Made by a program: the position numbers and the translations under genes. A stretch of 64,000 nucleotides of DNA from Candidatus Aldehydirespirator sp. (GTDB lineage: Bacteria; Actinomycetota; Acidimicrobiia; Acidimicrobiales; Aldehydirespiratoraceae), in the NCBI GenBank assembly GCA_965205155.1, contig OZ242033.1:2036590-2100589 (forward strand), written 5' to 3'. Shown in pieces: positions 33,030 to 51,700 of this stretch. Below the pieces are notes generated by a model, which was not told where the DNA came from, did not search any database, and was given only the letters and a program-made list of their open reading frames with translations. Numbering within the stretch: position 1 is the first letter of the stretch; each line of letters starts with the position of its first letter.

Positions 33030-33107
33030 GGGCCGTTAGCTCAGCCTGGTTAGAGCGCCTGCTCGACACGCAGGAGGTCAGAGGTTCAAATCCCCTACGG
33101 CCCACCA
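33030..33107 (+). tRNA. tRNA-Val (anticodon GAC) with unusual anticodon loop UCGACAC, CCA encoded
   Basis: Acceptor GGGCCGT/ACGGCCC, D arm GCTCAGCCTGGTTAGAGC, anticodon stem CCTGC/GCAGG, T arm AGAGG-TTCAAAT-CCCCT. Confidence 0.85.
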
Positions 33108-33108
33108 C

Positions 33109-33175
33109 GGGGGGTTCGCGACATGGAGCAGTTCGCGTTCGCGAGTTTGTTGAGAGATAAGCCCTCTTGGTGCCT
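33109..33175 (+). repeat. tRNA-Val downstream flank, repeated at 50211-50275
   Basis: ggggggttcgcgacatggagcagttcgcgttcgcgagtttgttgagagat versus ggggcgttcgcgagatggagcggtccgcgttcgcgagtttgttgggagat. Confidence 0.8.
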
Positions 33176-33532
33176 TCTGTTCGGTTGAAGGCTTGATCGA
33201 CCAGCGGTCGGGCGATCCGAATCCGTCCGGAATGCACGCGAGCGCGTCGTGACGTGTTCTTGGGCGCGCTGAAGCTGACAGCGCTCAGGCCGTCAGCTTC
33301 AGGGACAGCACCGCTACCGCGTGCGTGATGCTCGCGCCGTGCGGTGCACGGCGCGTCATGACTCTGGACCTGGGAACGGCACGACGCAGCAAGTCGTTGT
33401 CCTCATAATGCCGCAGGAGAGGGACGAGGACTACCCGGGGGTTACGCTGCTGTAGCCACGCAACCCCTAACGCCACGCCTACATCGGGCGGAACACCGTC
33501 GTATGGGCCCGGGACAAATCCGACTCAATGGG

Positions 33533-33883
33533 TCAAGTCAAGAGCCATCTCTGAGTATCCAATTGTTCGATGGGGCCGCGGACGCTGACGTTCTCGTTGC
33601 CGGGGCAGTCGTGCCACCAGATCACCAGCTCATCGCCCATCACATCACGGAACCTCGCGATGTCGGAACGATCCAATACGTCGCCTTCCGGGTAAGCGGC
33701 GCTGCCCACGTCCTCCAGGCTGATCTGCACAGCGTCGTGGGCTGAGCATCCGCACGGGAACACCGAGGGCCCACCGAACCGGAGGAACTCCTCCACAGCG
33801 CCGGGGCCTGTCTCTGCCATCTGGATGTCCGCCGGGCCGACTCCGCGGCGACGGTGGCTCGGACGCTTGCGTTTGCGGCTCAT
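33533..33883 (-). CDS. hypothetical protein (basic N-terminus)
   Basis: 116-aa ORF in a lower-GC stretch. No recognisable motif. Confidence 0.35.
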   Translation of the reverse strand: MSRKRKRPSHRRRGVGPADIQMAETGPGAVEEFLRFGGPSVFPCGCSAHDAVQISLEDVGSAAYPEGDVLDRSDIARFRDVMGDELVIWWHDCPGNENVSVRGPIEQLDTQRWLLT

Positions 33884-34056
33884 GACAGCACCTCCGTTGA
33901 CGACAGCGGATCGATGGGGGACGCGGGAGCCTCAAGCGAGGCAAGTCCCGTGGACGTAACTTACGGCCGAGGTGTGACATTTCGGAGCGCTGACTGTTTC
34001 AGGGCACCTGCGCAGGCCAGAGCCGACGAGCGTTAGCTAAGGCACCAGACACCCTT

Positions 34057-34225
34057 CGCACCACTCTGACCTCGTTAACTGAGCGTTGTCGATGGGCGTT
34101 GTAAATCAGCGTTCTGACGCCAGCGGACGGCCAAGAAAGTCAAGAAACCACCCTTCCGGATGTGAAGGTCTTTCCGCCAGTTACTAGAACGCCGAAGTCA
34201 AAGATGGTTGCCCCCGGGTCGAGGA
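34057..34225 (+). repeat. degenerate junction element V1
   Basis: cgcaccactctgacctcg...ggatgtgaaggtc...ctagaacgccgaagtcaaagatggttgccccc is collinear with the elements at 50.1 and 51.6 kb. Confidence 0.55.
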
Positions 34226-34656
34226 CCGCGCTTCATCAGATTTCTTCGCTAAAGGGTTGCTACGCAGAGTGAGCAGAATCTGCACGGTCCAACTGTTCAT
34301 TGGAACTATCAAAGAACGGGCGTCGTGGGCCGTAGCCATGCGCGTCTAGTGGCGAACACAGATCTAGACGCTCTGCGCAAGTCGTGTCTCTCACAATGAA
34401 GATCGAACAACGGAGAACAGCCGCTGAATGGGTTCTCTCAAACAAGTCTTGGTCTTCAGGCATTACGGATATCTGACTTTGTCGCCGTGGCTCAGAACTC
34501 ACTTTGAGCCCCTGCAAAAAAGTACGTGCGATCGCGAGAGTTGACCCGTACCGTCCCGCCTATACGACCTCAACCCACACCACCAAGGGGCTCACAACTG
34601 TCGGACTACGGTCGCAGGTGCCATCTATTGTTCCTTTCTCTGGGAAAGGAGCAGGC

Positions 34657-35694
34657 ATGACTCTTCGAACCATCACCAATAGGACGATGATCGCGGCCCT
34701 AGCAGCGGCCACGATGGTCGCCTCCGCGTGCGCCAGCGAAGCCGACCCCTTGGAGGCCGTCTCGACGACGGCGGCGGCCCCCGCGATCACCTCGGCACCC
34801 ACCATGACCGCCGTCGCCGAGCCGACCGCCTGCGACGATCCGTCCGCAGAGTATCTCGGCGACGGGCGCTACGAGCGCGACGGACTCGTCTACAAGTTGA
34901 TCGAGGGGCACTGCCTGATCCGACCGAACCGACCCGACGACGCTGATGATGTCCTCGACGACGCTCCCGTGCTGCATGGCGCAGACGCCGCCGGTGGTCA
35001 GGCGACCGTGATGGCGGAGCAGGTCTGCGTCGAGGGCGTGTGTGTCGACGTGCCACAGGACGGTTCGCCTATCGAGTTGCCTGAGGGTTTCGCCAACCAC
35101 GAGCACCCGACTGAGACAGAACCCGACCCTGAGGCTGCGGTCGCCTCCGCCACGACCGTGCCCGCGGTGGAGGCGACCACCACAGCCGCGCCCGAGCCGG
35201 ACCCCGGGCCGACCACCACAGCCGCGCCCGATTCGGAGCCTGAGGCAACCACCAGCACAACCACCTCGACAACGACCAGCACAACGACCACAACGACTTC
35301 GACGACGACCAGCACGACGACTGTGCCACCGCCGTCCACGACGGCTCCGCTGCCCGAGCAGGTCGGCGAGGTCATCACCGTGGACTTTGAGGTAGACCGC
35401 GAGTGCCACGACACGGGATGCACGCGGCCGTTGCTGTTACAGGTCGGGTCGGTGCTGCGCCTGAGCGATTATCCCGAGGATCACATTGTGATCGTCGAGA
35501 TGGAAGAGCCGGCATTCGACGGGGTAGTGGTGCTCTGGGTCTGCTGGGAATACGCCTCGGATGGGTTCTACGGGCGGTTTCGGTGGAGCGCCTGGGACAT
35601 GTCTTGGCGGCCGGACAAGTCGGGCGCCTATGAGCCGGTGCCGGGCACCTACCGCCTCGGGGACAACCTGTCCGACTATCACGGGCCGTGTTGA
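34657..35694 (+). CDS. lipoprotein with a Thr-rich linker (module A, N-terminal-type domain)
   Basis: GGAAAGGAG SD, lipobox MVASAC. ACDDPSAEYLGDGRYERDGLVYKL domain shared with 37608-39740. TTSTTTSTTTSTTTTTTSTTTSTTT linker. Confidence 0.7.
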   Translation: MTLRTITNRTMIAALAAATMVASACASEADPLEAVSTTAAAPAITSAPTMTAVAEPTACDDPSAEYLGDGRYERDGLVYKLIEGHCLIRPNRPDDADDVLDDAPVLHGADAAGGQATVMAEQVCVEGVCVDVPQDGSPIELPEGFANHEHPTETEPDPEAAVASATTVPAVEATTTAAPEPDPGPTTTAAPDSEPEATTSTTTSTTTSTTTTTTSTTTSTTTVPPPSTTAPLPEQVGEVITVDFEVDRECHDTGCTRPLLLQVGSVLRLSDYPEDHIVIVEMEEPAFDGVVVLWVCWEYASDGFYGRFRWSAWDMSWRPDKSGAYEPVPGTYRLGDNLSDYHGPC

Positions 35695-36938
35695 CGCGTC
35701 GCCGCCGCTGGCTGCTGCGCGCCCTGGCGGCGGTGACGCTTCTCCCGGTGATGTCGCCTGCGACGACATCTGCTGACCACGGCACCCCCGACACCGGTCG
35801 CCTCAAGCAGGTCTACACCCGCTACTACCATCACAATCCTTGGATCTGTGAGTCGTCCTTCGATGATCAGACCTACACGCTGCCCGACTGCGACTGGCCA
35901 AGAACTCTGTCAGAAACCGGATACAAGAGCACACCTCCCGAGCGAGTGGGCGGCGCGCCGCATCAGGGCACTGTCGTCACGCGATGCGAGATCGACGCCA
36001 CAGACCCGGCGAGTTCAGCGAACTGCGGTCACAGCCCGCGGGACACCGGGAATCCGTTGACGTCGTGGCGGTTCGGCGGGCAGTACCATCCCATCCACCA
36101 AGACGAAATAGGCGTCGCGGGCAGAACGGCGTATGTGTGCAGCGCGTCTGTCTCCAGCCTGTCCATCTACACCTCGTCGATGGGGCCGCTGTATCGGGCG
36201 GACGGGCATCCGGTGCAGGCCGGCGCCGGGGAATACTGCGGCACCGCTGCGCATCAGTTGTGCATCAGCGAGGTGACTGTCACCGAGGGCGCCCGCGCCA
36301 TATTGACGATCACCGCGTCGGGCGGCACCGGCACCGGGACGGTGCGGTTCGCGACCTCTGACGGCACCGCCGCGGCGGGCAGCGACTACACGGCCGTCGT
36401 GCCGTCCGTTCACACATTCGATGCGTCGACGACCTCGCAGCCGGTGATCGTGGCCACGATCGACGACACCGATGTGGAGTCCGCTGAGACGTTCACTGTG
36501 ACCCTCTCCAACGCCGACTCGGGGGCGTCCATCTCGTGCGCCACGGCGACGGTCACGATCCTCGACAACGAACCCCCGCCCACTACGACCACGACCGTGC
36601 CCAGCACCCCCACTACGACCACGACCGTGCCCAGCACCCCCACTACGACCACGACCGTGCCCAGCACGACCACTACCACGCCGCCGATGGCGGGCTGTGA
36701 TGCACCCCACACCCGGCTGAGTTCGTTGTACGGGCTGGAACGGGCCGGCTACATCGCCGAGACCAAGGCCATGTACTGCGAGGGCAGCCGCGCCCATCTG
36801 CACAACTATCCGCAGTTCCACGGCCCCTGGGTGGCGTCTTGGCTGCCTCCCGACGGGACGGTCTGCTTCGAGGCGGCGCTGCTGCACGCGGCGCGCACCG
36901 GCACCTACGACGAGGCCACGCGGGTCAAGTTCTGTTGA
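35688..36938 (+). CDS. secreted Calx-beta-domain protein with PTTTTTVPST repeats and a conserved Cys-containing C-terminal domain (module A)
   Basis: RRRRW signal. Calx-beta pattern TVRFATSDGTAAAGSDYTAV...VATIDDTDVESAETFTVTLS. Last 70 aa shared with 37608-39740. Start overlaps the upstream stop. Confidence 0.75.
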   Translation: MLTRRRRWLLRALAAVTLLPVMSPATTSADHGTPDTGRLKQVYTRYYHHNPWICESSFDDQTYTLPDCDWPRTLSETGYKSTPPERVGGAPHQGTVVTRCEIDATDPASSANCGHSPRDTGNPLTSWRFGGQYHPIHQDEIGVAGRTAYVCSASVSSLSIYTSSMGPLYRADGHPVQAGAGEYCGTAAHQLCISEVTVTEGARAILTITASGGTGTGTVRFATSDGTAAAGSDYTAVVPSVHTFDASTTSQPVIVATIDDTDVESAETFTVTLSNADSGASISCATATVTILDNEPPPTTTTTVPSTPTTTTTVPSTPTTTTTVPSTTTTTPPMAGCDAPHTRLSSLYGLERAGYIAETKAMYCEGSRAHLHNYPQFHGPWVASWLPPDGTVCFEAALLHAARTGTYDEATRVKFC

Positions 36939-36956
36939 GCCCATGAGGAGGGGACA

Positions 36957-37112
36957 ATGACCGACACACGCCACGACGCCCGACGCCGATGGGTGCTGGT
37001 AGCGGTGTCGGTCGCCGTGGTCCTCTACGGCATCGTCGGGTTCCCCAGCATCGAACGGCAGTGTGGGATTCCTTCTCTCCCGTCTGGTCAACGAACACCC
37101 GCGCCCACATAG
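36957..37112 (+). CDS. small membrane protein (51 aa), short paralog of 37302-37592
   Basis: GAGGAGGGG SD. MTDTRHDARRRWVLVAVSVAVVLYGIVGFP matches MTDTRRHARRRWALYAVVAAVVLYGIVGFP. Below the ORF-track size cutoff. Confidence 0.55.
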   Translation: MTDTRHDARRRWVLVAVSVAVVLYGIVGFPSIERQCGIPSLPSGQRTPAPT

Positions 37113-37181
37113 CGCTCGTCAGCACCGCCTTGGCCTCTCCCAATACGTCAAGCGGCCATCGTGAACGGGCCTACGCCACGC

Positions 37182-37292
37182 CTGTCGGAACGCAGTCCGT
37201 TGCGCTATACGAGAAATCCGCTACAGAACCTCATTTGCGACCCTGCAAGATCGTTGCAGTCTCAACGATCTTGGGACTAACGCACCAACCCC
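37182..37292 (+). repeat. about 111-bp repeat with an internal 11-bp-stem hairpin (copy A)
   Basis: ctgtcggaac...caagatcgttg cagtct caacgatcttg ggactaacgcaccaacccc. Direct repeat of 39774-39885. Confidence 0.8.
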
Positions 37293-37301
37293 GGGCGGCA
37301 G

Positions 37302-37592
37302 CTACTGAGCCGTCGTGGTGGGCGTCGGCCTGGCCGTCGTGGTGGGCGTCGGGGCGTGGGTGTGGGGCTTGTTGTAGCAGTACGGCGTGTCGAGCCTCTG
37401 CCCCCAGAAGGTGGTTATGCACTCGCGCTGCGTGTCGGCGGCGGCGGGCGCTATGTCGAAGTCCAGGGCCGCTCCGGGGTCGGTGACCAGATCGTCGGGC
37501 GTGGGGAAACCGACTATGCCGTAGAGGACCACCGCGGCCACCACCGCGTACAGCGCCCATCGGCGGCGGGCATGGCGGCGGGTGTCGGTCAT
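37302..37592 (-). CDS. small N-terminally anchored membrane protein (96 aa), partner of the module B secreted protein
   Basis: TM AVVAAVVLYGIVGF, starts 16 nt after the stop of 37608-39740, PTPTTTARPTPTTTAQ tail. Confidence 0.6.
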   Translation of the reverse strand: MTDTRRHARRRWALYAVVAAVVLYGIVGFPTPDDLVTDPGAALDFDIAPAAADTQRECITTFWGQRLDTPYCYNKPHTHAPTPTTTARPTPTTTAQ

Positions 37593-37607
37593 CGCATCCT
37601 CACGCTC

Positions 37608-39740
37608 TCAGCAGTACAGGACCTTCGTGGCTTGGTCGTAGACGGCGGTGCGGGCGGTCTCTAACAGCGCCGCTTGGAAGCAGACCGCCCCATCAGGCGG
37701 CAGCCACAAGGCAACCCACTCGCCGTGGAACTGCGGGTACCTCTTGAGGTTCTCGGAGGTGCCGGCGCAGTGCATGGCCTTCATTTGGGCGATGTAGTCG
37801 GCCCGCGGCAGGCCGTAGCCCTCAGCGGCGGTGTCGGTGTCGCCGGGCCGGGCCGCTGCCGCGGCATCTATGACCGCCTCGCAGCGCAGCCGGAAGCCCG
37901 CCGTGCGCAACTCTGCGGGCAACAGTCGGCTGGCATGGGTCTCGCAGTTCGCCCATGAGTGCTCTCCCGCGTAGTACAAGCCGCGCTCGCTGTCACGGAA
38001 GAGTTCCGCCCGGTCCCTGGCCTTGCGCTCAGCGACCAGTCCCACATACTGCTCGGCGGCGCACTCCGCTGTGACGCCCAGATAGCGCACCGGGTTCCCG
38101 AAGTCGTTGATGAGGAGGGTGCAGAAGTGGACGGTCATCCACTCGCCGCCGCCCGGCGACGTCCAACCCGGCGGGGGCCCCGACAGCGCGTCGCGGTAGC
38201 AGCCGTAGAGCGCCGCCACCAGCGGCGGTTCGTTGGGCGGCAGGATGTAGTTGTCTTCCACAAGCGACGTGTCGTGACCCTCGGCGCGCAGCGCCTTCTC
38301 GTTTCCGCCCTCCAGCAGCCGGGGCCAGCAGCCCACCAGCAGCGCCGGACCGTTGGCGTCGGGGTAGCTCTCCCATATGGCGTCGGCGGTGGCGTACTCG
38401 CAGGGGTACTGGCCCTCCAACATGCGTTCGGCCTCGGCCGCGGTGATCTGATCCCACCACGCCTTGATCCGCTCACAGGAGTCGCTGCCGCCCTGCACCA
38501 CCGGCTCGTAGTGCCCGGCTGCTGTCGTGCCGACTAGAGCCGACACCCGCGTGGCGCCGTACCAGTCGACCTCGCTGGCGCACTGCTCCAGCGGCTCACC
38601 GACCAGCCACGCCGCAGGCTCCGGCTCAGGAGGCTCGGTCGTGGCCGTGTCGGGCTGCTCGTGCCAGCAGTCCAGCACTTCATCTATGTACTGGCAGATG
38701 TAATCCTCGGGGTAGGGGAAGCCGTCCTGGTCCCCCTCGGGCCACAGCTCAGCCGCCGCAACAGGCTCAAGACGCGCCCTGTCCCACGGACCGGGCCCCT
38801 CCACCGAAACCGGCGCAGTGGTGGTCGTGACGGGCTCGGGCTCAGGCTCGGGTTCCGGCTCAGGTTGTGGTTCAGGCTCGGGCTCGGGCTCCGGCTCGGG
38901 CGTGGCCTCAGGCTCGGGGTCTGGTTCCGGTTCCGGTTCGGGTTCGGGCGGTGCCGTGGTAGTGGTCGTGGTGGTCGGCCCGGGCTCGGTCGGTGCCGGT
39001 GTGGGCTCGACAGTGACCACAGCGGCGGCGGACTGGACGCGCTCGTGGTCGCTGGCGACCCACACGAAGTCTCCCGCAGCGACGGCGTCGCGTGTCACGA
39101 CGAAGAAGCCGCCGCTGTTGACCTCCGCGGCCTCGAGTGAGTCGAGATCGCAGTCGGAGACATCAACCAAGGCTGTGGCGGCGTTCAACTCGTCTTCTGT
39201 GGCGTCCTCGGGCAGGCCTTCCGCCAGATCGCACAGCATCGTGAAGATCGCAAGGCTCGGATCGAACCCCGACCCGAAGAGAGTGAAAGTGGTGAGACCC
39301 TCCGACACCGTGACCGGGTCAACGACCAGGTGCGGAGCAGCAACTGCGTCTGACGGCGCCGTGCTCGGGACCAGATCAGACTCGACCGCTGCATCAACGA
39401 CGGCATCCGCTTGGCCGGTCCCTTCAGCGACGGCTGGGTCGGGCAGTCCGCGGGGCCGAGGCAGGCACCTAGTGTCGGTCATCTCATAGACCAGCCCGTC
39501 GCGTCGGAAGAACCCGCCGCCGAGGTCCTCGGCTGCGGGGTCGTCGCAGGCGCTGAGCTCTTCGGCGGGAGCGGTGGTCGAGGACGGCTGATCGTGCCCG
39601 ATGGATGTGGTGGCTGCTTCCGTGACAGAGGGCGCGGCGGGCTGGGGAACGGTCGGTTCCTCCGAGGCGCAGGCTGCGGCCACTGCGGCCGCGGCGACGA
39701 GGGCTATGCCGATCTTTCGGATACTGGCTGAGCGAAGCAT
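37608..39740 (-). CDS. large lipoprotein (module B) combining the N-terminal domain of 34657-35694 and the C-terminal domain of 35688-36938
   Basis: GAGGAG SD, lipobox [30 protein letters not shown], (PE)n linker, C-terminal [19 protein letters not shown]...[21 protein letters not shown]...KVLYC. Confidence 0.75.
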
Positions 39741-39773
39741 GGCAACTCCTCTGCAACTGGGTGGCGCAAACGC

Positions 39774-39885
39774 TCTGTCGGAACCCAAATCCGTTTCGCC
39801 ATACGGGAAATCCGTTTCAGGCCTCCATCAGCGACCCTTCAAGATCGTTGAGATTTCAACGATCTCGGGACTCACGCACCAGCCC
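39774..39885 (+). repeat. about 112-bp repeat with an internal hairpin (copy B)
   Basis: ctgtcggaac...agatcgttga gatt tcaacgatct...cgcaccagcccc, between the divergent starts at 39740 and 40079. Confidence 0.8.
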
Positions 39886-40078
39886 CCGCATCCGATCATC
39901 CCAACCAGCCTCGGCCCAATTCGCTGACGTCCCCTCTCAGGTCCCGGCAGCCAGCGTAATGACCTTCTCGGCTCGCATGCCGCTGACGACTCGACAGGCC
40001 GTGCGCGTCCCGACAGGGGCAAAACCCGTTTCGCACTCGGTCTACGGTTCTGCGACGCCCAACCGCCGAGGTGAGACA

Positions 40079-40735
40079 ATGGGAACCAGTCTTGACAACA
40101 CGGATGCTTGTGATGGCCTCGGTGAGGCCGCCGCGGTGCGTCCCATCGACGATACCGCGAACCGGGCGAGCGAGACCCACTTCTGGTTCGAGGCCGCCAG
40201 CCCGCTGGGAACCGTGTTCGTCACCCATTGCCGCGGGTGGGTGTCAGGAGTTCGCCTAGCGGCCACCCCCGACTGCCTGGAGGTTGACCGCAGTGACGCC
40301 GAGTGGGGCTTCTGGGATGCTGACACGTTCGTTCAGCTCATGCCCGGTGAGATCAAGGTTCGCTCCGTCGAGCCCGATCGAGGCCACGACCCAGCTTTCC
40401 AGGAACGCATACGAGGAGCCCTCATCGAGGGACGCACCGACATACCAATAGACCTCATGTGGCTCAAGACGGCTCCGAAGCACCGCATGGCGTTGCAAGC
40501 CGTTACCAGAATCCCTCGCGGCGCAACGCTTACTTACGAAGCAATCGCCAACATCTGTGAGTCTAGGGGCGGCCGGTGGGTGGGCAGAGCCATGAAGCGC
40601 AACCCGGTGCCGCTGTTGATCCCCTGTCATCGCGTCATCCATCAACAGGGCGAAGACGACAGGTGGGGCTACGGCAGAGGCCTCAAGAAGAAACTGCTGG
40701 CACATGAGCGCGAAGAGCGCGTAGCAACATGCTGA
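40079..40735 (+). CDS. methylated-DNA-protein-cysteine methyltransferase (MGMT/Ogt) family protein with an unrecognised N-terminal domain
   Basis: C-terminal TYEAIA...GRAMKRNPVPLLIPCHRVI (PCHRV active-site motif). Confidence 0.7.
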   Translation: MGTSLDNTDACDGLGEAAAVRPIDDTANRASETHFWFEAASPLGTVFVTHCRGWVSGVRLAATPDCLEVDRSDAEWGFWDADTFVQLMPGEIKVRSVEPDRGHDPAFQERIRGALIEGRTDIPIDLMWLKTAPKHRMALQAVTRIPRGATLTYEAIANICESRGGRWVGRAMKRNPVPLLIPCHRVIHQQGEDDRWGYGRGLKKKLLAHEREERVATC

Positions 40736-42483: not shown

Positions 42484-42621
42484 CCAGTGCCTTTCGTCGG
42501 TCGGATATTAGAGGATCGGGCGTGCAACCGAACCGGGCCCCACGGGCCGCTTCCAGTTGTCTCCTGGCTTCATAGCCGCATCGCCTCATAGCCCCGGTCG
42601 CCGCATACACGCTGCTGTGCT

Positions 42622-42715
42622 GCGGGGTGGCCGCAACCAGGCCTGGGCTCGGCGCTCCAGTGCCTGAACGGCGAAACCTTCACATCCTGTAGGGAGCTTC
42701 TTCACATTGCACAGT
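42622..42715 (-). repeat. junction element V2 (inverted orientation)
   Basis: Reverse complement reads aatgtgaagaagctccctacaggatgtgaaggtttcgcc...cctggttgcggccacccc. Boxes 22 nt apart. Confidence 0.65.
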
Positions 42716-42798
42716 CAGCGTCAGCGTCCTGGCCTCAGTGGGGGCCACAGTCAAGCGTTGCATAGCCGCAGGTCTTCCCGACTCGGCGACCGCCGGTT

Positions 42799-43499: not shown

Positions 43500-44678
43500 T
43501 CAGCGGCGGCGGACGTCCAGCAGCACCCTGTAGGTTCGCTTGAAGCGGGGGTCCTCCAGCGATCTCACGCCGAAGAGCACGATGGACCCCTCCGTGCCGC
43601 CGCGAACTATGCGACGCACGGCCGTGGAATCGGATTCGTCGCCGCTGGTTGGGACCGCCGTCCGCACTTCGCTGCCCGGCGTGAGAGCGTTCAGGGCGTC
43701 GTTCGACAGACTAGGTGTCCATCGCGCCCGCGGTCCGTATTCTCGCGTCCCGTGCGCGGAAACCTCGTAGCCGTCTGCTGCGGTCGCCGTCACAGTCAAT
43801 ATCTTCGACAAACCGGGAGATGGCAGCACCCCGTCGTACGAGATCAAGATGTTGTAGCGCAGGATGTCCGGGTCGAACGGAGGGTTCAGCCTGTCGCCGT
43901 CGAACATGAGTCCAGGCAGGTCCGACTCGAGGGGGCTTATGGAGATACTGATGCCGCTGAGGTGCGGTAGCGGGTCGGTGACGGTGAGCGTGACCTGCGG
44001 TTGGAGTATTGTGCCGTCCTGCCCGCGGCTGGCGAGGATGTATGAGAATGTGGTTTGGGCTGGACTAGTGACGTCGACCGTGAACTCCCCGCTGGGCAGG
44101 GAGAGGTCGATGCCGCTGCTGTTGATCCCCTCGAACCCCATTTCACGGAACTCAGAACCTGTGGTGCTGTAGCTCAGCGTCACCGTCTCGCCGAGGCGGA
44201 CACTTGTGGGCCCGAGGACCTCCAGCGTCGCTGTGTGGTCGCTGTCGCCCTGTTGCTCCGAGGCGGTGACGCTGCTGCCGGCTGATCCGGTGTCGGCGAC
44301 CGTCCCTTCCGGCACAGCGGCCGTGGTCGCTGGTGCGGCCGTGGGCTGAGCCTCCTGCGCCACTTCGGCCTCGCCGTCCTCCTGGGCGGCTGGGGCCACG
44401 TCGTCCTGCTGCGCCGCTTGGGCCTCGGCGTCTTGCTGCGCCGCTTGGGCCTCGGCGTCCACTTGGAGTTCCTGGGAGTCGTCGCCCTCTTGGGCCACGT
44501 CGCCATCTTGCGGCTCCTGGGTGGCCTGGGCGGCTTGAGCCTCCTCGACAGCCTGGACCTCGCCGCCCTCGTCGTCAGCGCCGCACGACACCATGGCCAT
44601 GGCCAGCACCGCAGCGGTGACCGCGAGCAGCAGCGGACGGGCTGCCATCCGCCTGGGGATAGTGGCGTGTCTGGGCAT
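43500..44678 (-). CDS. lipoprotein with an acidic AQ/E-rich linker and a cadherin-like beta-sandwich domain
   Basis: Lipobox AMAMVSCG (start ATG 44678 or 44648). LSGISISISPLESDLPGLMFDGDRLNPPFDPDILRYNILISYDG...LTVTATAADG pattern. Confidence 0.65.
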   Translation of the reverse strand: MPRHATIPRRMAARPLLLAVTAAVLAMAMVSCGADDEGGEVQAVEEAQAAQATQEPQDGDVAQEGDDSQELQVDAEAQAAQQDAEAQAAQQDDVAPAAQEDGEAEVAQEAQPTAAPATTAAVPEGTVADTGSAGSSVTASEQQGDSDHTATLEVLGPTSVRLGETVTLSYSTTGSEFREMGFEGINSSGIDLSLPSGEFTVDVTSPAQTTFSYILASRGQDGTILQPQVTLTVTDPLPHLSGISISISPLESDLPGLMFDGDRLNPPFDPDILRYNILISYDGVLPSPGLSKILTVTATAADGYEVSAHGTREYGPRARWTPSLSNDALNALTPGSEVRTAVPTSGDESDSTAVRRIVRGGTEGSIVLFGVRSLEDPRFKRTYRVLLDVRRR

Positions 44679-45364
44679 CGGGTCAACGAGATTACACCGT
44701 CGGGGCACCGTCATCTGGCTGCGCTGAGTGCGCTTGCTGCAACTGCGGCTCATGGAACGGGAAGGCGCCCGTCCGGGTCGTGGGCCGGATCGGACATCAC
44801 GCCCAGCGCCGACGTCGAGAGCCTCGGCTGGCAAGGCTCCCCTCGCGCCCGGCCGTGGCAGGGGCCACCAGGCGGTTGCCTGGCGGGTCGTGTCCATCTT
44901 CGGCAGTCGTCGGCGTGGCACGCTGGTAGCGCCATAGCTCATGGCGCCTCCTAGCAGCCTGAGTGCCCCGGCAGCCGACGCCGGGGCACTCACGCGTCCG
45001 GGTGGCTATGGGCGGCGTCGGACGCTGCTTGCTCCACGCTCTCTCGCTCACGACGATGCTCGGGCAAGCCGCCCTACATCAGAGCGCCCGCCTGCATCAA
45101 CAGCCGGGGCGCTCTGATGGTTCGGTTGTCGCTCGCCATGGGTGTGGCGGGCCTCCACACTCTACAGCCTCTCTGACCTGCGCTGTCGTGACGCTATGCG
45201 GTCCCCCATCGCCGACTCGCCGCCAGGCCCGCATCCGATTCAGCGTCTGACCGCGGCCCGACAGGCCCACAGGCTAGGAGACCGGCATGGCCGACCAGCA
45301 CGGGCAGGCGGAGCGCCGCTAAGCCACCGCCACCAAGCGCCGGATCAGGCCCATGGCCGTCTGC

Positions 45365-46510
45365 TCATGGTTCGCAGGACTCAGCGAGCGACAGCTGGAA
45401 CGCTCTCCACGCAGGCTCTTCCGGGATGAACTTGCTCGTGGCTTCCCATAGAGCTTCATGTCCGATTCGGCTAACGTACCCGGCCTCGACCCAACGATCG
45501 TGGTGGAACGACACAAAGCCAAGAGGGTCGAATCTGGGAATGGACTCACCTAGATTCTCCAGTTCGAGATACCGTTCGTAAGGTCGGAACTCCCCGCCAG
45601 ACTCCAGGAAGGCTCTCTGTAGGGCATGAGCGGTCACATACTCCATGTCAGCAGCAGCGAAGATGTCGGATACGGCCACTAGTTCCGCCTGGAGCCGCTC
45701 ATAGGCACCCCACGCTTCTCCTAGCTGTTGTGCATCTTGGATTGCGTGGTATGCGTCCACCGCCGCTGCTTTGGCTGCATCGCTCTCATGCTTCAATCTT
45801 GTCATCTCTGCGTGAATGAGGTCTATGGCGGCGCGCAATTCTTCCCACATGCGTGCATCCATCTCGGGCGAAACTGGCTCTCCGGGCAGGACTGGATGCG
45901 GTGTAGACAGTCTCATCGTTGGCGCATCGCTCATAGGCGCACTCATGGATGTGACCTCGATCATCTCGACAAGTTCCGGGGAGGCAACCTCTGCGAAGGC
46001 ATCCCGGGCCCGACTGATAGCTATCCGCGCCGTTTCCTCGTCCGCGTAGGGAGAGCCTTCTAGTGCATGTGGGGCAAGTGGCGCCATCGCTTCCCTTGCC
46101 GCCTGCACAAGGTCCAGCCGTGCGATGTCGTACTTCTCCTCAGCGGACTCGTAGTCGCTCAGCGCTTCGGCCTTGTCCAGTTCGTCTGTGGCGGCTTCGA
46201 AAAGGCTCTGAGCCTTGTAGTAGCGAAGCTCGGCCCTATGTGCCGCCATCCAACGGCCTGAGAACCCGCTCCAAGCCTGTTGGATGGTCGCGCACCAGAC
46301 GAACCGGTTGCCGAGGCGCACCGTCATCTGAGGCTCGGGTTCTGTGCCCGCGTCTGGGCGCTCGCTGGCATCTGTCGGCGACTCCTGCCCACCTGCATCC
46401 AAGGCGACTTCGGCCGCTTCGGGCTGCGCATCTTCCGCTGCGGGAGAGTCATCGCCTCCGCAAGCCGCGGCCAAGAGAACGACTGCAAGCAACACAGCGG
46501 CTAGGCGCAA
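45365..46510 (-). CDS. helical lipoprotein, function unknown
   Basis: In-frame TTG 46510 gives (M)RLAAVLLAVVLLAAACGG lipobox. The longer ORF-track N-terminus is Arg-rich noise. Confidence 0.6.
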   Translation of the reverse strand: MRLAAVLLAVVLLAAACGGDDSPAAEDAQPEAAEVALDAGGQESPTDASERPDAGTEPEPQMTVRLGNRFVWCATIQQAWSGFSGRWMAAHRAELRYYKAQSLFEAATDELDKAEALSDYESAEEKYDIARLDLVQAAREAMAPLAPHALEGSPYADEETARIAISRARDAFAEVASPELVEMIEVTSMSAPMSDAPTMRLSTPHPVLPGEPVSPEMDARMWEELRAAIDLIHAEMTRLKHESDAAKAAAVDAYHAIQDAQQLGEAWGAYERLQAELVAVSDIFAAADMEYVTAHALQRAFLESGGEFRPYERYLELENLGESIPRFDPLGFVSFHHDRWVEAGYVSRIGHEALWEATSKFIPEEPAWRAFQLSLAESCEP

Positions 46511-47156
46511 GATGCAGGCCTGGGCCGGTGTGGGGTGGGTGTCGCGCGAGTCGGCATTCAAGGCCGCTCCTCTCGTGTCGTAGCAAGCTGAAGTGTCCGA
46601 CCCATCCGCGGCTCGGCGCCGGAGCGCTGGTAGCGCTCGCAACGAGGCACTGGATGCAGGGCCTGGCCTGTGGCTGTTCTCGGCATAGGTGGCATCTCTG
46701 GAGCGGGTCTGGGCATGCTTGCCAGAGAACGCCTTGCAACAGGACCGGAGGGAGCCTCGACTGGGCCCACCGCGGCGGGCCCAGTCGCTCAACGGGATTG
46801 CCGGATACCGATGTTCTCGGACGGCGGGCACCGTAGCTGCGGCCGTCACAGTGGGCAAGCCCCGAGACTGCTTGCTGCAGCACGACCATGCCAGCAGGTG
46901 CAGCAGCCGCACGCGTCGGACCCCACCGCGCGAAGCCCATCGTCGATGGAATGGCGTCAGATGGGTTGGAGTGAGCTGTCCAGGTTGAGCAGAGCGTTGA
47001 GCTCGGGATCCACGATGTGCAGCGCGCCGTCGACATGGCGTTTGGAGGTTGGATACGAGCCGTGCGACGGTGTTGCCGCATGCCCCTTCGTGGACCTGAA
47101 CCCGCAGAAACTCCGACTGGGCTTCGACCCTCAAGCTCGCACCGACATGCAGGTCG

Positions 47157-47260
47157 ACCGCGTTCGCGAATCACCCGATTCGCGTTCGGGAATTCGCCAA
47201 ATCGCGTTCCGACTACGACTCGGCGCAAGCTGCTGACCTAGGGGTTCGTGATTTCGCGCC
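47157..47260 (+). repeat. partial junction element V3 (gttcgcga-type flank repeats plus tgacctagg box)
   Basis: gaccgcgttcgcgaatc...gattcgcgttcgggaattc...cgcaagctgctgacctagggg. Confidence 0.5.
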
Positions 47261-47368
47261 ACGCCCCACAGGCCGGGCAGAATCTCTGGACAGGTCCAGC
47301 AGCCGTCCCAAGGAATCCCAGCCCCAGTCCACAGGCAGGGCCCTCTGGCGTCACGCCCCGTCGATAGG

Positions 47369-48118
47369 TTGACCCGGAGTGACCTGCTCACATCGTGCGA
47401 CCACCGACCGAGGAGACCAGCCGTGGGTATAGCCGATTCCGAGTTCGCGCTGGAGAAGCTGAGAGAGTTTCTCGCGCTAATCGCAGAGAGCGACCACGAC
47501 GCAGTTCATAGGTCGCTGCCCATCATCGAAGCAATCGCGAAGCAGGTGGACCCCGGCAATGTCCTAGAACTGAGATCGGTGGCTCTGCCCCTGGGTGGAG
47601 TGAGTTGGGAGCCCGCTCGCGTGGAGGCCCTTCGGCTCGTCGGGATTGTGGAGCAGGACGCGGACTTTCAGCGGATGAGCGGCCCTGTGGGCCCGATGTT
47701 GGCTGCTAGTCGTCTGCATCGTTGGGTCTGGAACGCCGCGGCGAGCCTGTGGGATGACGGGCACTACGAGCCTGCCGTGCATGAGGCGGCCAAGGCTGTG
47801 GAGCTACGAACGCAGTTGAAGGTCGGCCGCCGCGACATCAGCGGCAAGGACTTGTACGCCCAAGCCTTCTCGGTCAAGGAGCCGACAGGCAAGATGCCCC
47901 GCCTTCGGTTCTTGCACATTGACAGGAACGAGCGACCCGATGACTGGACCTCCGCGCACGAGGGAGCCATGCATCTCGGGATGGGCTGCGCTCAGGGCAT
48001 CCGCAACCCGCAAGCGCATCCGTCGGAGGACATCACAGAGCAGGAAGCGCTGGAGCAGCTGGCCGCTCTGAGCGTGCTGGCTCGCTGGGCGGACGCGTGC
48101 GAGGTCGTCGCGAGTTAG
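47369..48118 (+). CDS. TIGR02391 (Hypoth_Ymh)-type protein, a family commonly seen in Abi/TA contexts
   Basis: LHRWVWNAAASLWDDGHYEPAVHEAAKAVE...SAHEGAMHLGMGCAQGIRNPQAH...EALEQLAALSVLARW. Confidence 0.65.
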   Translation: MTRSDLLTSCDHRPRRPAVGIADSEFALEKLREFLALIAESDHDAVHRSLPIIEAIAKQVDPGNVLELRSVALPLGGVSWEPARVEALRLVGIVEQDADFQRMSGPVGPMLAASRLHRWVWNAAASLWDDGHYEPAVHEAAKAVELRTQLKVGRRDISGKDLYAQAFSVKEPTGKMPRLRFLHIDRNERPDDWTSAHEGAMHLGMGCAQGIRNPQAHPSEDITEQEALEQLAALSVLARWADACEVVAS

Positions 48119-48183
48119 ACACCTCTCAGCCGCAACCGGCCTCTACGGGTTGGAGCTGACCCGGTTTCGTTGACACCGGGTGG

Positions 48184-49062
48184 TTATGCGGCGTGGGCCG
48201 CGGGTTGGTGGTGTTGTTCGTAGCGGATGGGTGACAGGTTGTCGAGTCGGGTGTGGCGGCGGTGGTGGTTGTACCAGTCGATGAAGCTCATGATTTGGGT
48301 GCGGGCGTCGGTGTGGCTGCGGAACCGGGTCTTGTCGAGCAGCTCGCACTCGAGGGTCGCGAAGAACGATTCGGCCATGCTGTTGTCAAAGCAGTCGCCT
48401 CTGGTGCCCATCGACAGCACGATCCCGGCGCGGCGGCAGCGGCGCCCGAACGCGATGCTGCCGTATTGGGATCCCTGGTCTGAGTGGTGGATGAGGCCTC
48501 GGGGCGGTCGGCGGGTCTGGATGGCCATGTCGATGGCGTCAACGATCAACTCTGTGCGCATGTGGGTGGCGTAGGACCAGCCCACGATGCGGCGGCTGAA
48601 CACGTCGAGCACGGTGGCGAGGTACCCGAACCCGGCCCAGGTCGGCACGTAGGTGATGTCGGCCACCCACAACTCGTTGGGGCCCGCCGCGGTGAACTGG
48701 CGGTTGACCCGGTCCGGTGCCGGCGACTGCGAGTCGTCGCGGCGTGTGGTCCAGGCCTTCTTGCGGCGGTGACAGCCGGCGATGCCGGCCTGGCGCATCA
48801 GGCGGGCGACCCGTTTTCGGCCGCAGCGAATGCCGTAGTCATCGGCGAGCTCGGCACAGATCCTCGGGGCCCCGTAGTTGTGCCGCGAGTCGGCATGGAT
48901 CTTCTTGATGACCGCGGTGTAGGCCGCGTCGGTGATGCGACGTTGAGAGGGCGGCCGCTTGCGCCACGCGTAGAAGCCCTGGCGGGTGACGCCGAGGCGC
49001 TCGCACATGAACTTGACCGGGAAGTTGGCCTTCTCCGCCTCGATGAAGCTGAACACCCTCAC
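48184..49062 (-). CDS. IS3-family transposase OrfB (DDE)
   Basis: WVADITYV, IHHSDQGSQYGS, DCFDNSMAESFFATLECEL, YNHHRRHTRL. Confidence 0.85.
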   Translation of the reverse strand: MRVFSFIEAEKANFPVKFMCERLGVTRQGFYAWRKRPPSQRRITDAAYTAVIKKIHADSRHNYGAPRICAELADDYGIRCGRKRVARLMRQAGIAGCHRRKKAWTTRRDDSQSPAPDRVNRQFTAAGPNELWVADITYVPTWAGFGYLATVLDVFSRRIVGWSYATHMRTELIVDAIDMAIQTRRPPRGLIHHSDQGSQYGSIAFGRRCRRAGIVLSMGTRGDCFDNSMAESFFATLECELLDKTRFRSHTDARTQIMSFIDWYNHHRRHTRLDNLSPIRYEQHHQPAAHAA

Positions 49063-49361
49063 CGCGTCGGGGCGTTCTTCGCCGCGAAGAAGGCCGCGGC
49101 TGCTTTTTCCAGCAGGTCCTTCTCCATGCGCAGCACCCGGTTCTCGGCCCGCAGCCGGCGAAGCTCGGCCTTCTCATCGGTCGTGAGCCCGCCCCGCTGG
49201 CCGTCATCGATCTCGGCCTGGACGACCCAGTTCATGATCGACTGCGCCGACGGCTCGAACTCGCGGGCAAGCTCCGACGGCGACCGGCCCTCCTCACGGA
49301 CCAGCCGCACCAGCTCGGCCTTGTACTCAGTCGGATACGGCGGACGAGTGCGTCCTCCCAT
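49059..49361 (-). CDS. IS3-family transposase OrfA
   Basis: ATG 49361. PPYPTEYKAELVRLVREEGRSPSELAREF, LRRLRAENRVLRMEKDLLEKAAAFF. Confidence 0.85.
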   Translation of the reverse strand: MGGRTRPPYPTEYKAELVRLVREEGRSPSELAREFEPSAQSIMNWVVQAEIDDGQRGGLTTDEKAELRRLRAENRVLRMEKDLLEKAAAAFFAAKNAPTR

Positions 49362-49631
49362 AGTTGACTCCCCTCTGGACCCCCTCAAGGATCCCAGGAT
49401 CAGGGTGTCAACCAAACCGGGTCAGCTCCAAACTGCCCTTGAAGCAAGTCTGGACGCTGGTAGAGAACTGAGCATGGCGGGCGGGAGTCGGCTCGCCCAG
49501 CCCAGACCTTCCCGCAAAGCAAACGCTGTGCTCCTCGTCCCGAGAGATCACCGAACCGTCCGACTGGACCTGCCAGAATTCGCCTCCGTGAGGCATCCCG
49601 TGCGCGAGCGGTTCCCCTCGGGCGGTGACGC

Positions 49632-50027
49632 GTGACGACGGTGCTGGTATCAGCCGCGGTGAGCGCGGTCGTGGCTTTGCTCGTGGTGCTACTGGCCCAG
49701 CACTTGTCGGACCGGTCCGAACGACGCCGCCTGCGTCGCGACGTGCTGCGCAAGCTCGCAGGACACCGCTACCTGATCGCCGGAGACGTCAGCCCTGTGC
49801 CCAACGAATTCTGGGTGGCACTGAACGAGGTCGGCATCGCGTATCTGGACGACGATGAGGTCATGGAGGCACTGCGTGTGTTCAGGACACGAGTCAACCG
49901 CGGACAGGTGGCCGAGGACTTCGTTCCGCTCATTGAGGCGATGGCGAGAGCGGCCAGGCTGCCCGCTGAGCGCCTCGATTCTGAGATGCTGACGACTCCG
50001 TTCGCTCCGCAGAATCCTAAGAGCTAG
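49632..50027 (+). CDS. hypothetical N-terminally anchored membrane protein
   Basis: TM VLVSAAVSAVVALLVVLLA then a soluble helical domain. Confidence 0.5.
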   Translation: MTTVLVSAAVSAVVALLVVLLAQHLSDRSERRRLRRDVLRKLAGHRYLIAGDVSPVPNEFWVALNEVGIAYLDDDEVMEALRVFRTRVNRGQVAEDFVPLIEAMARAARLPAERLDSEMLTTPFAPQNPKS

Positions 50028-50078
50028 CAGTGAACCGGACGGGCTTCGCCGTCCAGCACGCACTGCCTGGGAGTCGCC

Positions 50079-50280
50079 GCGCACTACCTTTGACCTAGGC
50101 TTTTGCGGCCAAATGTGGAGTCCCCTACCAACCAAATGTGGAGACCTCTTCTTCGGAGTGCGCTAGAAGGTAGAGGTCAAGGCAGGTCGCGAACACCCTA
50201 CAACAACTATGGGGCGTTCGCGAGATGGAGCGGTCCGCGTTCGCGAGTTTGTTGGGAGATGGGCATTCTTGGCCGGGAAG
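50079..50280 (+). repeat. junction element V4: tgacctagg box, two AAATGTGGAG boxes, a decayed tRNA-Val 3' half and a copy of the tRNA-Val downstream flank
   Basis: Boxes at 50111 and 50134. gaggtcaaggcaggtcgcgaacaccctacaacaactatgggg aligns with tRNA-Val gaggtcagaggttcaaatcccctacggcccaccacgggg, then the flank repeat. Confidence 0.8.
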
Positions 50281-50445
50281 ATGCGAAGAGCCCGCGGGCG
50301 GCTGCCCGGCGTCACTTTCCTTCTTGGTGCGCGAGTGGCGGATGCGACTCTTGGCGCCCCGGAGCTCGGCCGGCACGAGCCCGTCCGCAGGCACGGTCCA
50401 GAGCTCTGGCAGCCGTTCTGGCAACGGGTGCCGAGGGTCGAGCCC

Positions 50446-50991
50446 CTATGCGCTGGTAGCGGGTTGCGAGGATGCCTGGTCCGAGGTGTCAACCGCGATG
50501 TGCTGCATGAAGACACGGTATGTCTCTGCTGATTCTTGAAGGGTGTTCCCCAAGTCCGCTAGCAGGCGCAGCGCCTCGCGCTGCTCTTCAGTGAACTTCC
50601 GGCTGGCTGGGTGTATCGCTGTGCGGAACATCGCGATCCAGGCGTCAGGCCTCTCCTCGTGGTCTTGGTGGGCTGTGCGGGTGTGGGTGGTCAGCGGGAT
50701 GCGCTCGTTGTCGAATACGGCGGTCACCTCTAGGTGGCCGCCCATGCCTTCGACCGCCATCCGCAGAGTCGACACCAGGTTGTCGGCGGCGGTCTCCATT
50801 GCCGACACGGACGCCTGGGCGCGGTCAAGGCGTCGTGCCAGCTCGGTCTGGGTGAGATTGCGGCGCTGGCGCAGTTCCTTGAGGGTGTAGGCCACGGTCT
50901 CGGCGCGGGCTTCCTCCTTGAGGGCCTCGACCCGGGCGCGCTGCTCAGGGGTCAACTCGCCGACGAGTTCATCGAAGTCGTAGTAGGTCAT
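50446..50991 (-). CDS. XRE-family HTH antitoxin (HigA-like) with a C-terminal extension
   Basis: LKELRQRRNLTQTELARRLDRAQASVSAMETAADN. Start ATG 50991. Confidence 0.75.
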   Translation of the reverse strand: MTYYDFDELVGELTPEQRARVEALKEEARAETVAYTLKELRQRRNLTQTELARRLDRAQASVSAMETAADNLVSTLRMAVEGMGGHLEVTAVFDNERIPLTTHTRTAHQDHEERPDAWIAMFRTAIHPASRKFTEEQREALRLLADLGNTLQESAETYRVFMQHIAVDTSDQASSQPATSA

Positions 50992-51038
50992 GTGGGGTGG
51001 TCTCCTGTGGTGGGGGCGGTGCATCGTGGGGCTGCTGG

Positions 51039-51426
51039 CTACGGGTCTGGGAACTCGCCTTGGGATCGGAGATCGGCCAGGTACTGCTCGTACAGGCGCT
51101 CCGCCTCCGGGATGGCGCTCCGGTACCAGTCGTTCCATTGGCGGGCTTTGCTGCCTCCGAACAACAGGATCGCCTGCCGGCGCGGGTCGAACATGAACAG
51201 GATGCGCAGGTTCCTGCCCGCGCCGCGGGGTCTGAGTTCTTTCATGTTCTGATGTTGGGAGCTGTGGATCCGTTCGACGATGGGACGCCCCTACGTCGGG
51301 CCGCCCTCGCGCAGCAGCTCTAGGGCAGCGATGAACGAGAGCCGCTCTTCTTCGTTGAGCGACTCCTGCCAGGACTTCACCTGCGCTGTCGCCTTGATCT
51401 CCCACGCCACCAACATAGTATAGGGC
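51039..51426 (-). pseudogene. HigB/Gp49-like (RelE superfamily) toxin interrupted by an in-frame TAG at 51291-51293
   Basis: ...LELLREGGPT*GRPIVERIHSSQHQNMKELRPRGAGRNLRILFMFDPRRQAILLFGGSKA... Both halves are in the same frame. Confidence 0.7.
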
Positions 51427-51570
51427 TGACTCGATATAGGTGCTACTTGTGTCAGATGGCCGGTCGCGGATCCGTGGTGCTGTACGCCGCGTCTGGCACA
51501 CAGTAAAGGCGCACTCGCCGTCGAGCCACACACGGCCGTAGCGCGGCACCCTGAACGGAGGGCCCATCCT

Positions 51571-51700
51571 CGCACCGCCTCTGACCTAGGGTTTTCTCCG
51601 CGAAATGTGAAGAAGGCACCTCTCAGGATGTGAAGGTTTCGCAGCGAGGTGCTAGAACCCCGAGGTCAGAGGTGGTCGCGAACACCCCACTGACTGACCG
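51571..51700 (+). repeat. junction element V5
   Basis: cgcaccgcctctgacctagg, AAATGTGAAG at 51603, GGATGTGAAG at 51626. gaggtcagaggt is identical to 12 nt of tRNA-Val, then ggtcgcgaacacccc. Confidence 0.75.

Follow-up and report, generated by a model that had tools for sequence, protein, structure and literature searches.

A probable stack of decayed transposon remnants behind tRNA-Val in Candidatus Aldehydirespirator, from an undescribed family that apparently homes to tRNA and tmRNA genes

Tn7 and Tn7-like transposons home to attTn7 under the direction of TnsD/TniQ, and some of them home next to tRNA genes. They insert in an orientation-specific manner beyond the 3' end of a conserved gene that is left intact, have asymmetric ends with subterminal repeats, rely on a separate site selector, and carry cargo rich in defence and toxin-antitoxin genes. 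A different arrangement is seen in Tn4430 of the Tn3 family, in which a DDE transposase is accompanied by a tyrosine recombinase, TnpI, that is catalytically active and resolves cointegrates. Islands linked to tRNA genes are routinely credited to tyrosine integrases, with their limits mapped by displaced tRNA fragments. Here we describe a locus at which the same picture apparently arises from a DDE transposon: a 64,000-nt stretch of Candidatus Aldehydirespirator sp. (contig OZ242033.1, positions 2,036,590 to 2,100,589; hereafter the window, numbered from its first letter), in which the tRNA-Val(gac) gene is followed by what are probably non-autonomous or decayed members of a single transposon family, stacked head to tail; this family inserts just 3' of tRNA and transfer-messenger RNA (tmRNA) genes.

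An earlier note on this DNA had interpreted repeats in the region as decayed copies of the tRNA-Val 3' half and its flank, marking the distal ends of islands. We find that this observation was real but misread, the repeats being transposon termini rather than decayed tRNA halves, and that only end modules and cargo (HigBA, IS3 and orphan genes) survive in the window. For comparison with relatives, we retrieved 80 loci using the enoyl-CoA hydratase (ECH) gene at 32194-33006 as an anchor; loci from relatives are referred to below by L numbers.

End modules in the window

The target, the tRNA-Val(gac) gene, lies at 33030..33107 on the + strand (ARAGORN; Rfam RF00005, 62.5 bits), and searching the whole window against Rfam returned three tRNAs and nothing else. 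The sequences that had been quoted for tRNA-Val (33074-33160) and its copies (50173-50272 and 51662-51690) are indeed at these positions, and the alignment between the 33.07- and 50.17-kb sites is real (33074-33170 vs. 50173-50272, 77% over 101 nt, E 1e-14, in-window blastn), but its significance does not come from the tRNA part, with most of the signal carried by the flank (33104-33170 vs. 50206-50272, 84% over 67 nt). This flank, at 33108-33305, is one copy of a conserved module of ~215 nt that forms the left end of a mobile element; the module starts with GGGG(K)GT.. and contains two 9-10-nt direct repeats and a terminal hairpin (CTGAAGCTGACGG..CCGTCAGCTTCAG). In intact copies the module spans the interval from the tRNA 3' end to the stop codon of a 450-645-aa protein encoded on the opposite strand, and in Acidimicrobiales relatives the element starts 4-8 nt past the discriminator base of tRNA-Val.

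The window copy next to the tRNA, LE1, is a full-length left end (33108..33305, + strand; nhmmer left-end profile E 3e-47) with its terminal inverted repeat GGGGGGTTCGCGAC at 33109-33122, the octamer GTTCGCGA at 33114 and 33137, and a terminator-like hairpin at 33269-33302 that has no transposase gene behind it. LE1 is 87.5% identical to L081 (9667-9363) through the whole module, and the homology ends at the hairpin, just before the stop codon of the L081 transposase. A second copy, LE2 (50211..50275, + strand), retains the first ~65-74 nt only (84% to LE1; nhmmer E 1.8e-14, profile positions 3-74) and starts with GGGGCGTTCGCGAG, 12 nt past the right end described below as RE-C. A third, tentative remnant for which the evidence is weak consists of a truncated left end at 47157-47215 and a short right-end-like piece (ctgacctagg...cacgccccac), together 47157..47268 on the + strand, and precedes a Hypoth_Ymh gene (47369-48118). 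Its left-end part aligns with L017 7154-7223 (left-end profile E 8e-10), with the same gene downstream in both; of the flank-type repeats that had been reported in this stretch, one is an exact GTTCGCGA (47162) and the remaining ones are degenerate. Overall, GTTCGCGA occurs 10 times in the window, compared with 3.7 expected and a count reached by no shuffle, and 7 of the 10 copies fall inside left- or right-end modules.

The left-end profile also matched directly behind tRNA-Val in more than 10 relatives (L003, L009, L010, L011, L012, L014, L018, L081/82, L083 and L084) and beside tmRNA in L085, with further, more distal copies in L009 (16085), L005, L017 and L008, as in the window itself (50204-50275, first 74 profile positions only). 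The proposed att-type duplication of a tRNA 3' half together with chromosomal flank does not hold, since the supposed flank is the left terminus of a transposon family, found beside other tRNAs and tmRNA and adjoining a DDE transposase gene.

Our analysis also revealed a ~120-nt right-end module, unseen in the earlier note, with four window copies at 34.2, 42.7 (inverted), 50.1 and 51.6 kb. The last of these, RE-D (51568..51688, + strand; nhmmer E 1.3e-26), aligns with the decayed RE-A (34131..34225, + strand; 75% over 76 nt, E 9e-11; nhmmer E 2e-22), with RE-B (42615..42718, - strand; 74% over 86 nt, E 9e-11; nhmmer E 3.5e-25) and with RE-C (50077..50198, + strand; 68.5% over 127 nt, E 2e-9; nhmmer E 2.6e-23). 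All four share an order of two AATGTGAAG-type direct repeats, followed by GCTAGAAC and then ..GGT(C/T)GCG..CACCCC; in RE-D, the two repeats and GCTAGAAC are followed by GAGGTCAGAGGT (51662-51673), the terminal inverted repeat GGTCGCGAACACCCC (51674-51688) and then ACTGACTGACC.

The reverse complement of the RE-D tip, GGGGTGTTCGCGAC, equals the LE1 tip at 13/14 positions, and overall the left tips (33109-33122 and 50211-50224) match the right tips (50185-50198 and 51674-51688) as inverted repeats at 12-13/14. RE-C closes in the inverted repeat GGTCGCGAACACCC (50185-50198), which had been taken for a ruined T-arm. Because RE-C and RE-D both end in GGTCGCGAACACCC(C), the reverse complement of the flank start (GGGGGGTTCGCGAC / GGGGCGTTCGCGAG), the supposed T-arm and the supposed flank are inverted repeats of each other, and the "T-arm" at 50.19 and 51.68 kb is an inverted repeat of the left-end tip GGGGKGTTCGCGA. 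Any tRNA-derived look is limited to the final 2-7 nt (..CCCAC) at most, a resemblance that target-site duplication would be expected to produce. The right end-spacer-left end order at 50185-50224 is the arrangement also found in L009 (15900-16290, RE-TGAA-LE), identifying the 50.19-50.22 kb site as a head-to-tail junction of two elements. Outward of this junction, the 1478-bp unit at 50211-51688 is a miniature element with good inverted repeats whose only cargo is higA and a higB pseudogene; the unit running from LE1 to RE-C is clearly composite, with the extra right ends RE-A and RE-B, the possible left-end remnant at 47.16 kb and an IS3 element.

Every right-end module immediately precedes a small gene that reads away from the module's tip, such as higB at 51416, and its paired direct repeats are accompanied by promoter-like hexamers (TTCACA..TAGGTC). 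These features would also suit cassettes that provide a promoter and operator for small regulator or toxin-antitoxin genes and that have been dispersed by ordinary recombination, with no relation to element ends. We regard this reading as very improbable, given that the left terminus recurs as an inverted repeat at the tips of the modules, that one of them abuts a left end and another the native tRNA flank, and that intact elements in L085 and L009 are closed by an end of the same architecture; a module could also serve both as a promoter and as an end.

The reading in the earlier note corresponds to classical integrase-type islands, which would form by site-specific recombination within tRNA-Val, with the displaced tRNA 3' half (attR) since decayed. 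The location behind a tRNA and the same-orientation tRNA-like stretch at the distal ends fit this proposal, as does the CCC(C/T)AC that closes the right ends and resembles the end of the tRNA. Using local alignment and 2000 dinucleotide shuffles, we compared the tRNA alone (33060-33110) with every right-end module. The tRNA-like part was suggestive in RE-D, the 51.6-kb copy (6/2000 shuffles, that is, aligning better than 1994/2000), where 26 nt align, anticodon loop through T-stem, among them a 12-nt identity, GAGGTCAGAGGT; it was marginal in RE-C, the 50.1-kb copy (91/2000), and not significant in RE-A (34.1 kb) or RE-B (42.7 kb). An nhmmer version of this test gave no match between right ends and tRNA, and the tRNA similarity of the right ends of L085 and of the proximal L009 element (L009a) was not significant either. 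Right ends might mimic the target tRNA, but the signal for this is suggestive in RE-D only and not significant in RE-A, RE-B, L085 and L009a. Further points against integrase islands are that GGTCGCGAACACCC is the reverse complement of the flank tip and not a T-loop, and that the window contains no integrase gene (Pfam, including Phage_integrase, on open reading frames (ORFs), and tblastn); neither an R-H-R-Y integrase gene nor a distal direct copy of an exchanged tRNA 3' segment was found. The remaining evidence on this proposal comes from intact members of the family.

Intact members in relatives

Intact members carry two core genes, a transposase gene and a partner gene that runs into the start of the transposase gene (a 4-nt overlap in most gene tables, 25 nt in L085). 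The transposase and partner families comprise 66 and 129 clusters, respectively. Neither has a Pfam domain that reaches the cut-off, and weak precomputed DDE matches exist for a few entries of the transposase family; only one carries a functional name ("transposase"), a few are labelled "hypothetical protein", and the partner family is without a functional name. The transposase matched DDE_Tnp_1_6 and IS1182 weakly, at 26-28 bits vs. an IS1182 cut-off of 270. D243, D381 (within ADRGxT) and E557 are invariant in 32 aligned homologues, with E557 inside a Y-x2-R-x3-E-x6-K signature, and the same 32 sequences share a Cys cluster. This DDE triad and signature are found in relatives; the window has no such gene. 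Since sequence and profile searches of the PDB gave no meaningful match for either protein, structure prediction was needed, and the best PDB match of the transposase AlphaFold model (pLDDT 81) was Tn5 transposase (probability 1.0).

Both domains of the partner model (pLDDT 91) are covered by matches to XerA, Cre, XerH, IntI and Tn1549 Int (probability 1.0, lowest E 3e-7). Among the final 60 residues of the protein, no alignment column has Tyr in >=20% of 30 sequences; the expected nucleophile position is Leu in 28/30, and the Arg-I position is Arg in 12/30. Several arginines and a histidine (R197, R252, R254 and H261) are invariant, and in an hhalign comparison with E. coli XerD, only box I and the beta-hairpin align. 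We conclude that the partner has a tyrosine-recombinase fold in which catalysis has probably been lost. Within the same element family, it could alternatively be the real site-specific integrase, using a non-canonical nucleophile and leaving the DDE protein as an accessory or a second mode of mobility. The complete two-domain Cre/Xer-like fold predicted with high confidence, the four invariant residues, and the targeting of tRNA and tmRNA genes, a classical habit of this fold, would all agree with such a role. We nonetheless consider it improbable, as the Tyr is not conserved, Arg-I is variable, the XerD alignment is limited to two segments, the DDE triad and YREK signature are invariant in 32 sequences, and inverted terminal repeats with short flanking duplications fit transposition.

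Two side observations concern these genes. With tblastn, the only window matches of 186 family proteins lie on the + strand at 18260-18418 and 24405-24713 (E ~0.004), within an island behind tRNA-Cys; they are probably noise, although they could be very old remnants. In L081, ~1 kb of non-coding sequence upstream of the partner gene (5375-6454) is dense in GTGTCC(A/G)GAAGT-like repeats, which resemble the first repeat of that element's left end, and this stretch may be an extended right-end or regulatory region; gene callers read it as a 359-aa ORF, which was dismissed as a low-complexity artefact over repeat-rich non-coding sequence.

All 8 of the 8 fetched homologue places are arranged tail-to-tail with a tRNA or tmRNA gene, on its 3' side: the neighbour is tRNA-Val(gac) in L081/82, L083 and L084, tmRNA in L085 and L086, tRNA-Val(tac) in L087, tRNA-Ser in L088 and tRNA-Ala in L089. 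L086 and L087, which belong to one 3.44-Mb genome, are 100% identical over >7.6 kb, and this identity ends 1-4 nt from the tmRNA end and the tRNA-Val(tac) end, respectively, two target 3' ends that differ. Such identity at different targets shows recent movement, and also that the proximal junction carries no tRNA segment, which speaks for insertion beside the tRNA rather than for exchange within it. A (TC)n run considered as the distal end of L086/L087 was rejected, because the identity runs past it and off the locus.

Complete ends were found in two loci. L085 is a complete 5.2-kb element with tips GGGGGTTTCGCGGGT (left) and ACCCGCGAACACCCC (right), an inverted repeat at 13/15 positions, and has (C)CACTTT on either side; in build, its right end follows RE-A to RE-D, with AAAATGTGGAAC, two GAATATGGGGAACTC repeats and then the inverted repeat. 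L009 has two elements in tandem, the proximal one having a right end with three AAATGTGAAAC repeats. The last ~40 nt of this right end are left-end-like in reverse complement, and it is followed by TACTGAA and then by the second left end. Its tRNA junction reads CACTGAA, so that L009a is flanked by (C/T)ACTGAA on both sides, with an inverted repeat of about 12/17. Candidate target-site duplications are thus seen in L085 and L009a, and none in the window units. Generic and targeted inverted-repeat searches did not locate the distal ends in L003, L009, L018, L081, L083 and L084.

For the integrase-island proposal, the recombinase fold of the partner is a further point in favor, set against the missing nucleophile Tyr of this same protein and against the identical elements at tmRNA and tRNA-Val(tac), which share no common tRNA segment at the proximal junction. 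Together with the right-end results above, this leaves islands of that type unlikely at this locus.

The variable region and how it may have grown

The closest anchor loci come from Acidimicrobiales metagenome-assembled genomes named "Candidatus Aldehydirespirator" (84-96% protein identity). The order ECH to tRNA-Val is kept in 18 relatives, and the sequence behind tRNA-Val is different in almost every genome. In L001, which is among the closest (anchor protein 94% identical), tRNA-Val is followed by ~570 nt, then by the equivalent of window 50469-51526 (higBA, 93.5%), and then by 56819-57302, 57494-57651, 61452-62370 and 62615-63611; this relative has neither 33.1-50.5 kb nor 51.53-56.82 kb of the window. 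In L008, by comparison, tRNA-Val is followed after ~18 nt by window 47341 onward, and L002 shares 47350-48104, 56819-57302 and everything from 61405. As these three relatives each keep different blocks, the 33.1-61.4 kb region is a variable mosaic, and the earlier suggestion of serial accretion at tRNA-Val is borne out by this hypervariable pile of separately gained blocks, whole blocks of which are missing in relatives. The same is true of the predicted return to core-like genes near 61.3 kb, with conserved genes present from ~61.4 kb in L001 and L002 (92-96% identity). Element-like traces that had been suspected at 55.17 and 61.32 kb had no profile match at E<1 and look like chance.

Relatives without an element show short tandem repeats right behind tRNA-Val, with units that open with the last two bases of the tRNA: ACTGAC.. 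in L007 (10913-10960) and L017 (4195-4250), and ACTGGTA.. in L004 (10913-10935). These might be stacked target-duplication footprints of repeated insertion and excision. L001 (10890-10950) has a perfect 23-bp tandem duplication, CCCCTACGGCCCACCCAAGACTG x2, that includes the last 15 nt of tRNA-Val, with ACTGACTGACAACAAC after it; either an excision footprint or a long target duplication may account for this. In the window, RE-D is followed by ACTGAC.., resembling the native tRNA-Val flank of L007, L017 and L001, and this outer flank would fit an old insertion at the tRNA that newer arrivals have since pushed away from it.

The analysis shows the end-module homology, the inverted repeats, the adjacency to tRNA and tmRNA genes, the protein folds and motifs, and the presence or absence of blocks between genomes; the target recogniser, the order of insertion, any present-day activity and every mechanistic step that goes beyond sequence, fold and placement are inferred. 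Intact members, seen in relatives only, begin with the ~215-nt left end 4-8 nt past the tRNA discriminator base, followed by the Tn5/IS4-type DDE transposase gene, tail-on, then the partner gene, the cargo and a right end that closes in an inverted repeat of the left tip. The transposase would cut and join the element ends, and the dead recombinase-like partner would set site and orientation by reading either the element ends or the end of the tRNA or tmRNA gene. A new arrival would go between the tRNA and the resident element, shifting older copies outward; such stacking would yield right end-spacer-left end junctions like that at 50.19-50.22 kb, and the old native flank ACTGAC.. would remain next to the oldest right end (51.69 kb). 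Because neither a transposase nor a partner gene is present, the window would represent stacked non-autonomous remnants of such elements.

Several results weigh against this reading. With all 186 family proteins as tblastn queries, the window lacks both the transposase and the partner gene, and so gives no sign that its copies moved as units. The short inverted-repeat matches are singly non-significant by BLAST (E 0.5-1.5), the right-end profile matched nothing at E<1 outside the window, and it is only in architecture that other members have right ends like those of the window. The window units have no matching target duplications, one being flanked by CCACGG vs. TACAAC and the other by CTAT vs. 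ACTGAC, and no terminal inverted repeats were found in L003, L018, L081, L083 and L084 within the 8-10 kb fetched. Finally, the transposon model does not account for the likeness of RE-D to the tRNA interior (12-26 nt, 6/2000), which may be chance or a relic and is absent from the other family members checked. A metagenome scan with GGTCGCGAACACCCC returned 120 loci, 0 of which had left- or right-end modules or either protein, and these are accordingly chance matches.

Turning to cargo, the 50.2-51.7 kb unit had been described as a HigBA-like pair, and this is confirmed by Pfam helix-turn-helix (HTH) hits and by an L001 orthologue with a Gp49 domain. The XRE-HTH antitoxin gene higA (50446..50991, - strand; Pfam HTH_31, HTH_37 and HTH_3) is 93.5% identical to L001, and the Gp49/HigB-type toxin gene upstream of it, higB (51039..51416, - strand; L001 orthologue Pfam Gp49 5e-18), is a pseudogene with an in-frame TAG premature stop at 51291-51293 (GGPT*GRP vs. 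GGPTQGRP in L001). A second XRE-HTH gene at 55707-56804 is paralogous to higA (50784-50937: 154 nt, 84% identity). As L001 DNA upstream of higB runs directly into window 56819 onward, 51527-56818 is a single indel; it contains RE-D, a RES-domain toxin pair and a 633-aa repeat protein. Inside the array lies an IS3-family insertion sequence (orfA/orfB, 48150..49431, - strand; Pfam rve, HTH_21 and HTH_Tnp_1) with 28-nt inverted repeats that are 96% complementary, and L008 (12835-12951) contains a 95.7% identical end of this element.

Behind tRNA-Val, the G+C content falls from ~0.70 to ~0.65. A second island, with G+C down to 0.49-0.65, follows right after tRNA-Cys at 14020-25400; it contains a 687-aa orphan ORF (14617-16680), an IS3-type transposase (19535-20383) that differs from the IS3 at 48150-49431, a HEPN protein and a CobW GTPase, and L008 has parts of it (20670-22424). 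The distance from tRNA-Cys to tRNA-Val is 19 kb here vs. 6-10 kb in relatives. An Abhydrolase_2 gene that lies before an RCC1/SLH protein in the window (24734-25386) is inverted and 96% identical in L001 (17787-18439), where it sits between luciferase-like and APH genes, a rearrangement joining two sides of the variable region. Further repeats include a 97-nt direct repeat (37196-37292 and 39790-39886, 80% identical) with a 26-nt hairpin (AGATCGTTG..CAACGATCT), which brackets a 726-aa gene (37608-39788), has large imperfect inverted repeats nearby (36729-37047 vs. 37502-37817), and could be another small mobile or regulatory repeat of the island. Tandem repeats of 24 nt x3 and 16 nt x4 (30282-30359 and 30905-30968) lie between the DUF418 and serpin genes, and the serpin gene is duplicated in L001, L006, L009, L017 and L018.

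Relation to known systems

The window remnants themselves are a case of ordinary decay, and their parent family appears to be an undescribed group of tRNA/tmRNA-homing DDE transposons with an integrase-fold partner. Within a limited collection of full-text literature, we found no account of a DDE transposase paired with an inactive tyrosine recombinase, or of the targeting of such a pair to tRNA genes. The two-gene core joins two recombinase worlds, a Tn5-type transposase and an integrase-fold protein that seemingly lacks catalysis. It is possible, if short of probable, that this is an undescribed class of site-specific transposon in which a Tn5-like DDE transposase recruited a dead tyrosine integrase as its selector, one that kept its ancestral recognition of tRNA and tmRNA ends, so that successive homing would produce the tandem arrays and excision would have left the AC-initiated repeats of element-free relatives as footprints. 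Should it be the partner that reads the target, the family would offer a compact, protein-guided and orientation-specific means of insertion at a safe site, assembled independently of Tn7, and would clearly exemplify the conversion of an integrase into a DNA-targeting subunit. Arrays of this kind will be missed, or given wrong limits, by island finders that depend on integrase genes and on repeats of tRNA fragments.

Compared with Islander-type tyrosine-integrase islands (PMC4383910), the family uses the same tRNA/tmRNA 3' targets, has a recombinase-fold gene near the tRNA-proximal end and forms tandem arrays at one tRNA, but its recombinase-fold protein has no catalytic Tyr, no tRNA fragment is regenerated or displaced, and a DDE transposase and inverted terminal repeats are present. 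With no active integrase and no displaced tRNA fragment, the family does not belong among these islands. It shares with IS4, IS5, IS1182 and ISL3 the catalytic Y-R-E-K signature and fold, short terminal inverted repeats and putative short target duplications; unlike them, it scores far below family cut-offs, has a second obligatory gene, and comprises elements of 5 to >7.6 kb with cargo, in one or two copies per genome and strictly at tRNA/tmRNA genes. As in Tn4430, a DDE transposase is paired with a tyrosine-recombinase-fold protein, but the partner here lacks the tyrosine and the transposase is unrelated to Tn3 TnpA.

The family resembles Tn7 in inserting orientation-specifically, bases to tens of bases past the 3' end of a conserved gene that stays intact, in its asymmetric ends with several subterminal repeats, in a presumed separate, non-catalytic site chooser, and in cargo rich in defence and toxin-antitoxin genes. 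It differs in that Pfam and NCBIfam scans of the core genes revealed no TnsA, TnsB, TnsC or TniQ, and in having a two-gene core of a Tn5/IS4-like transposase and a presumed selector with a tyrosine-recombinase fold, with insertion 4-8 nt from the tRNA end; without TnsABC or TniQ, it does not qualify as a member of the Tn7 group. Overall, these elements behave like Tn7-like homing transposons, are located like integrase islands, and are similar to IS4/Tn5 in catalysis.

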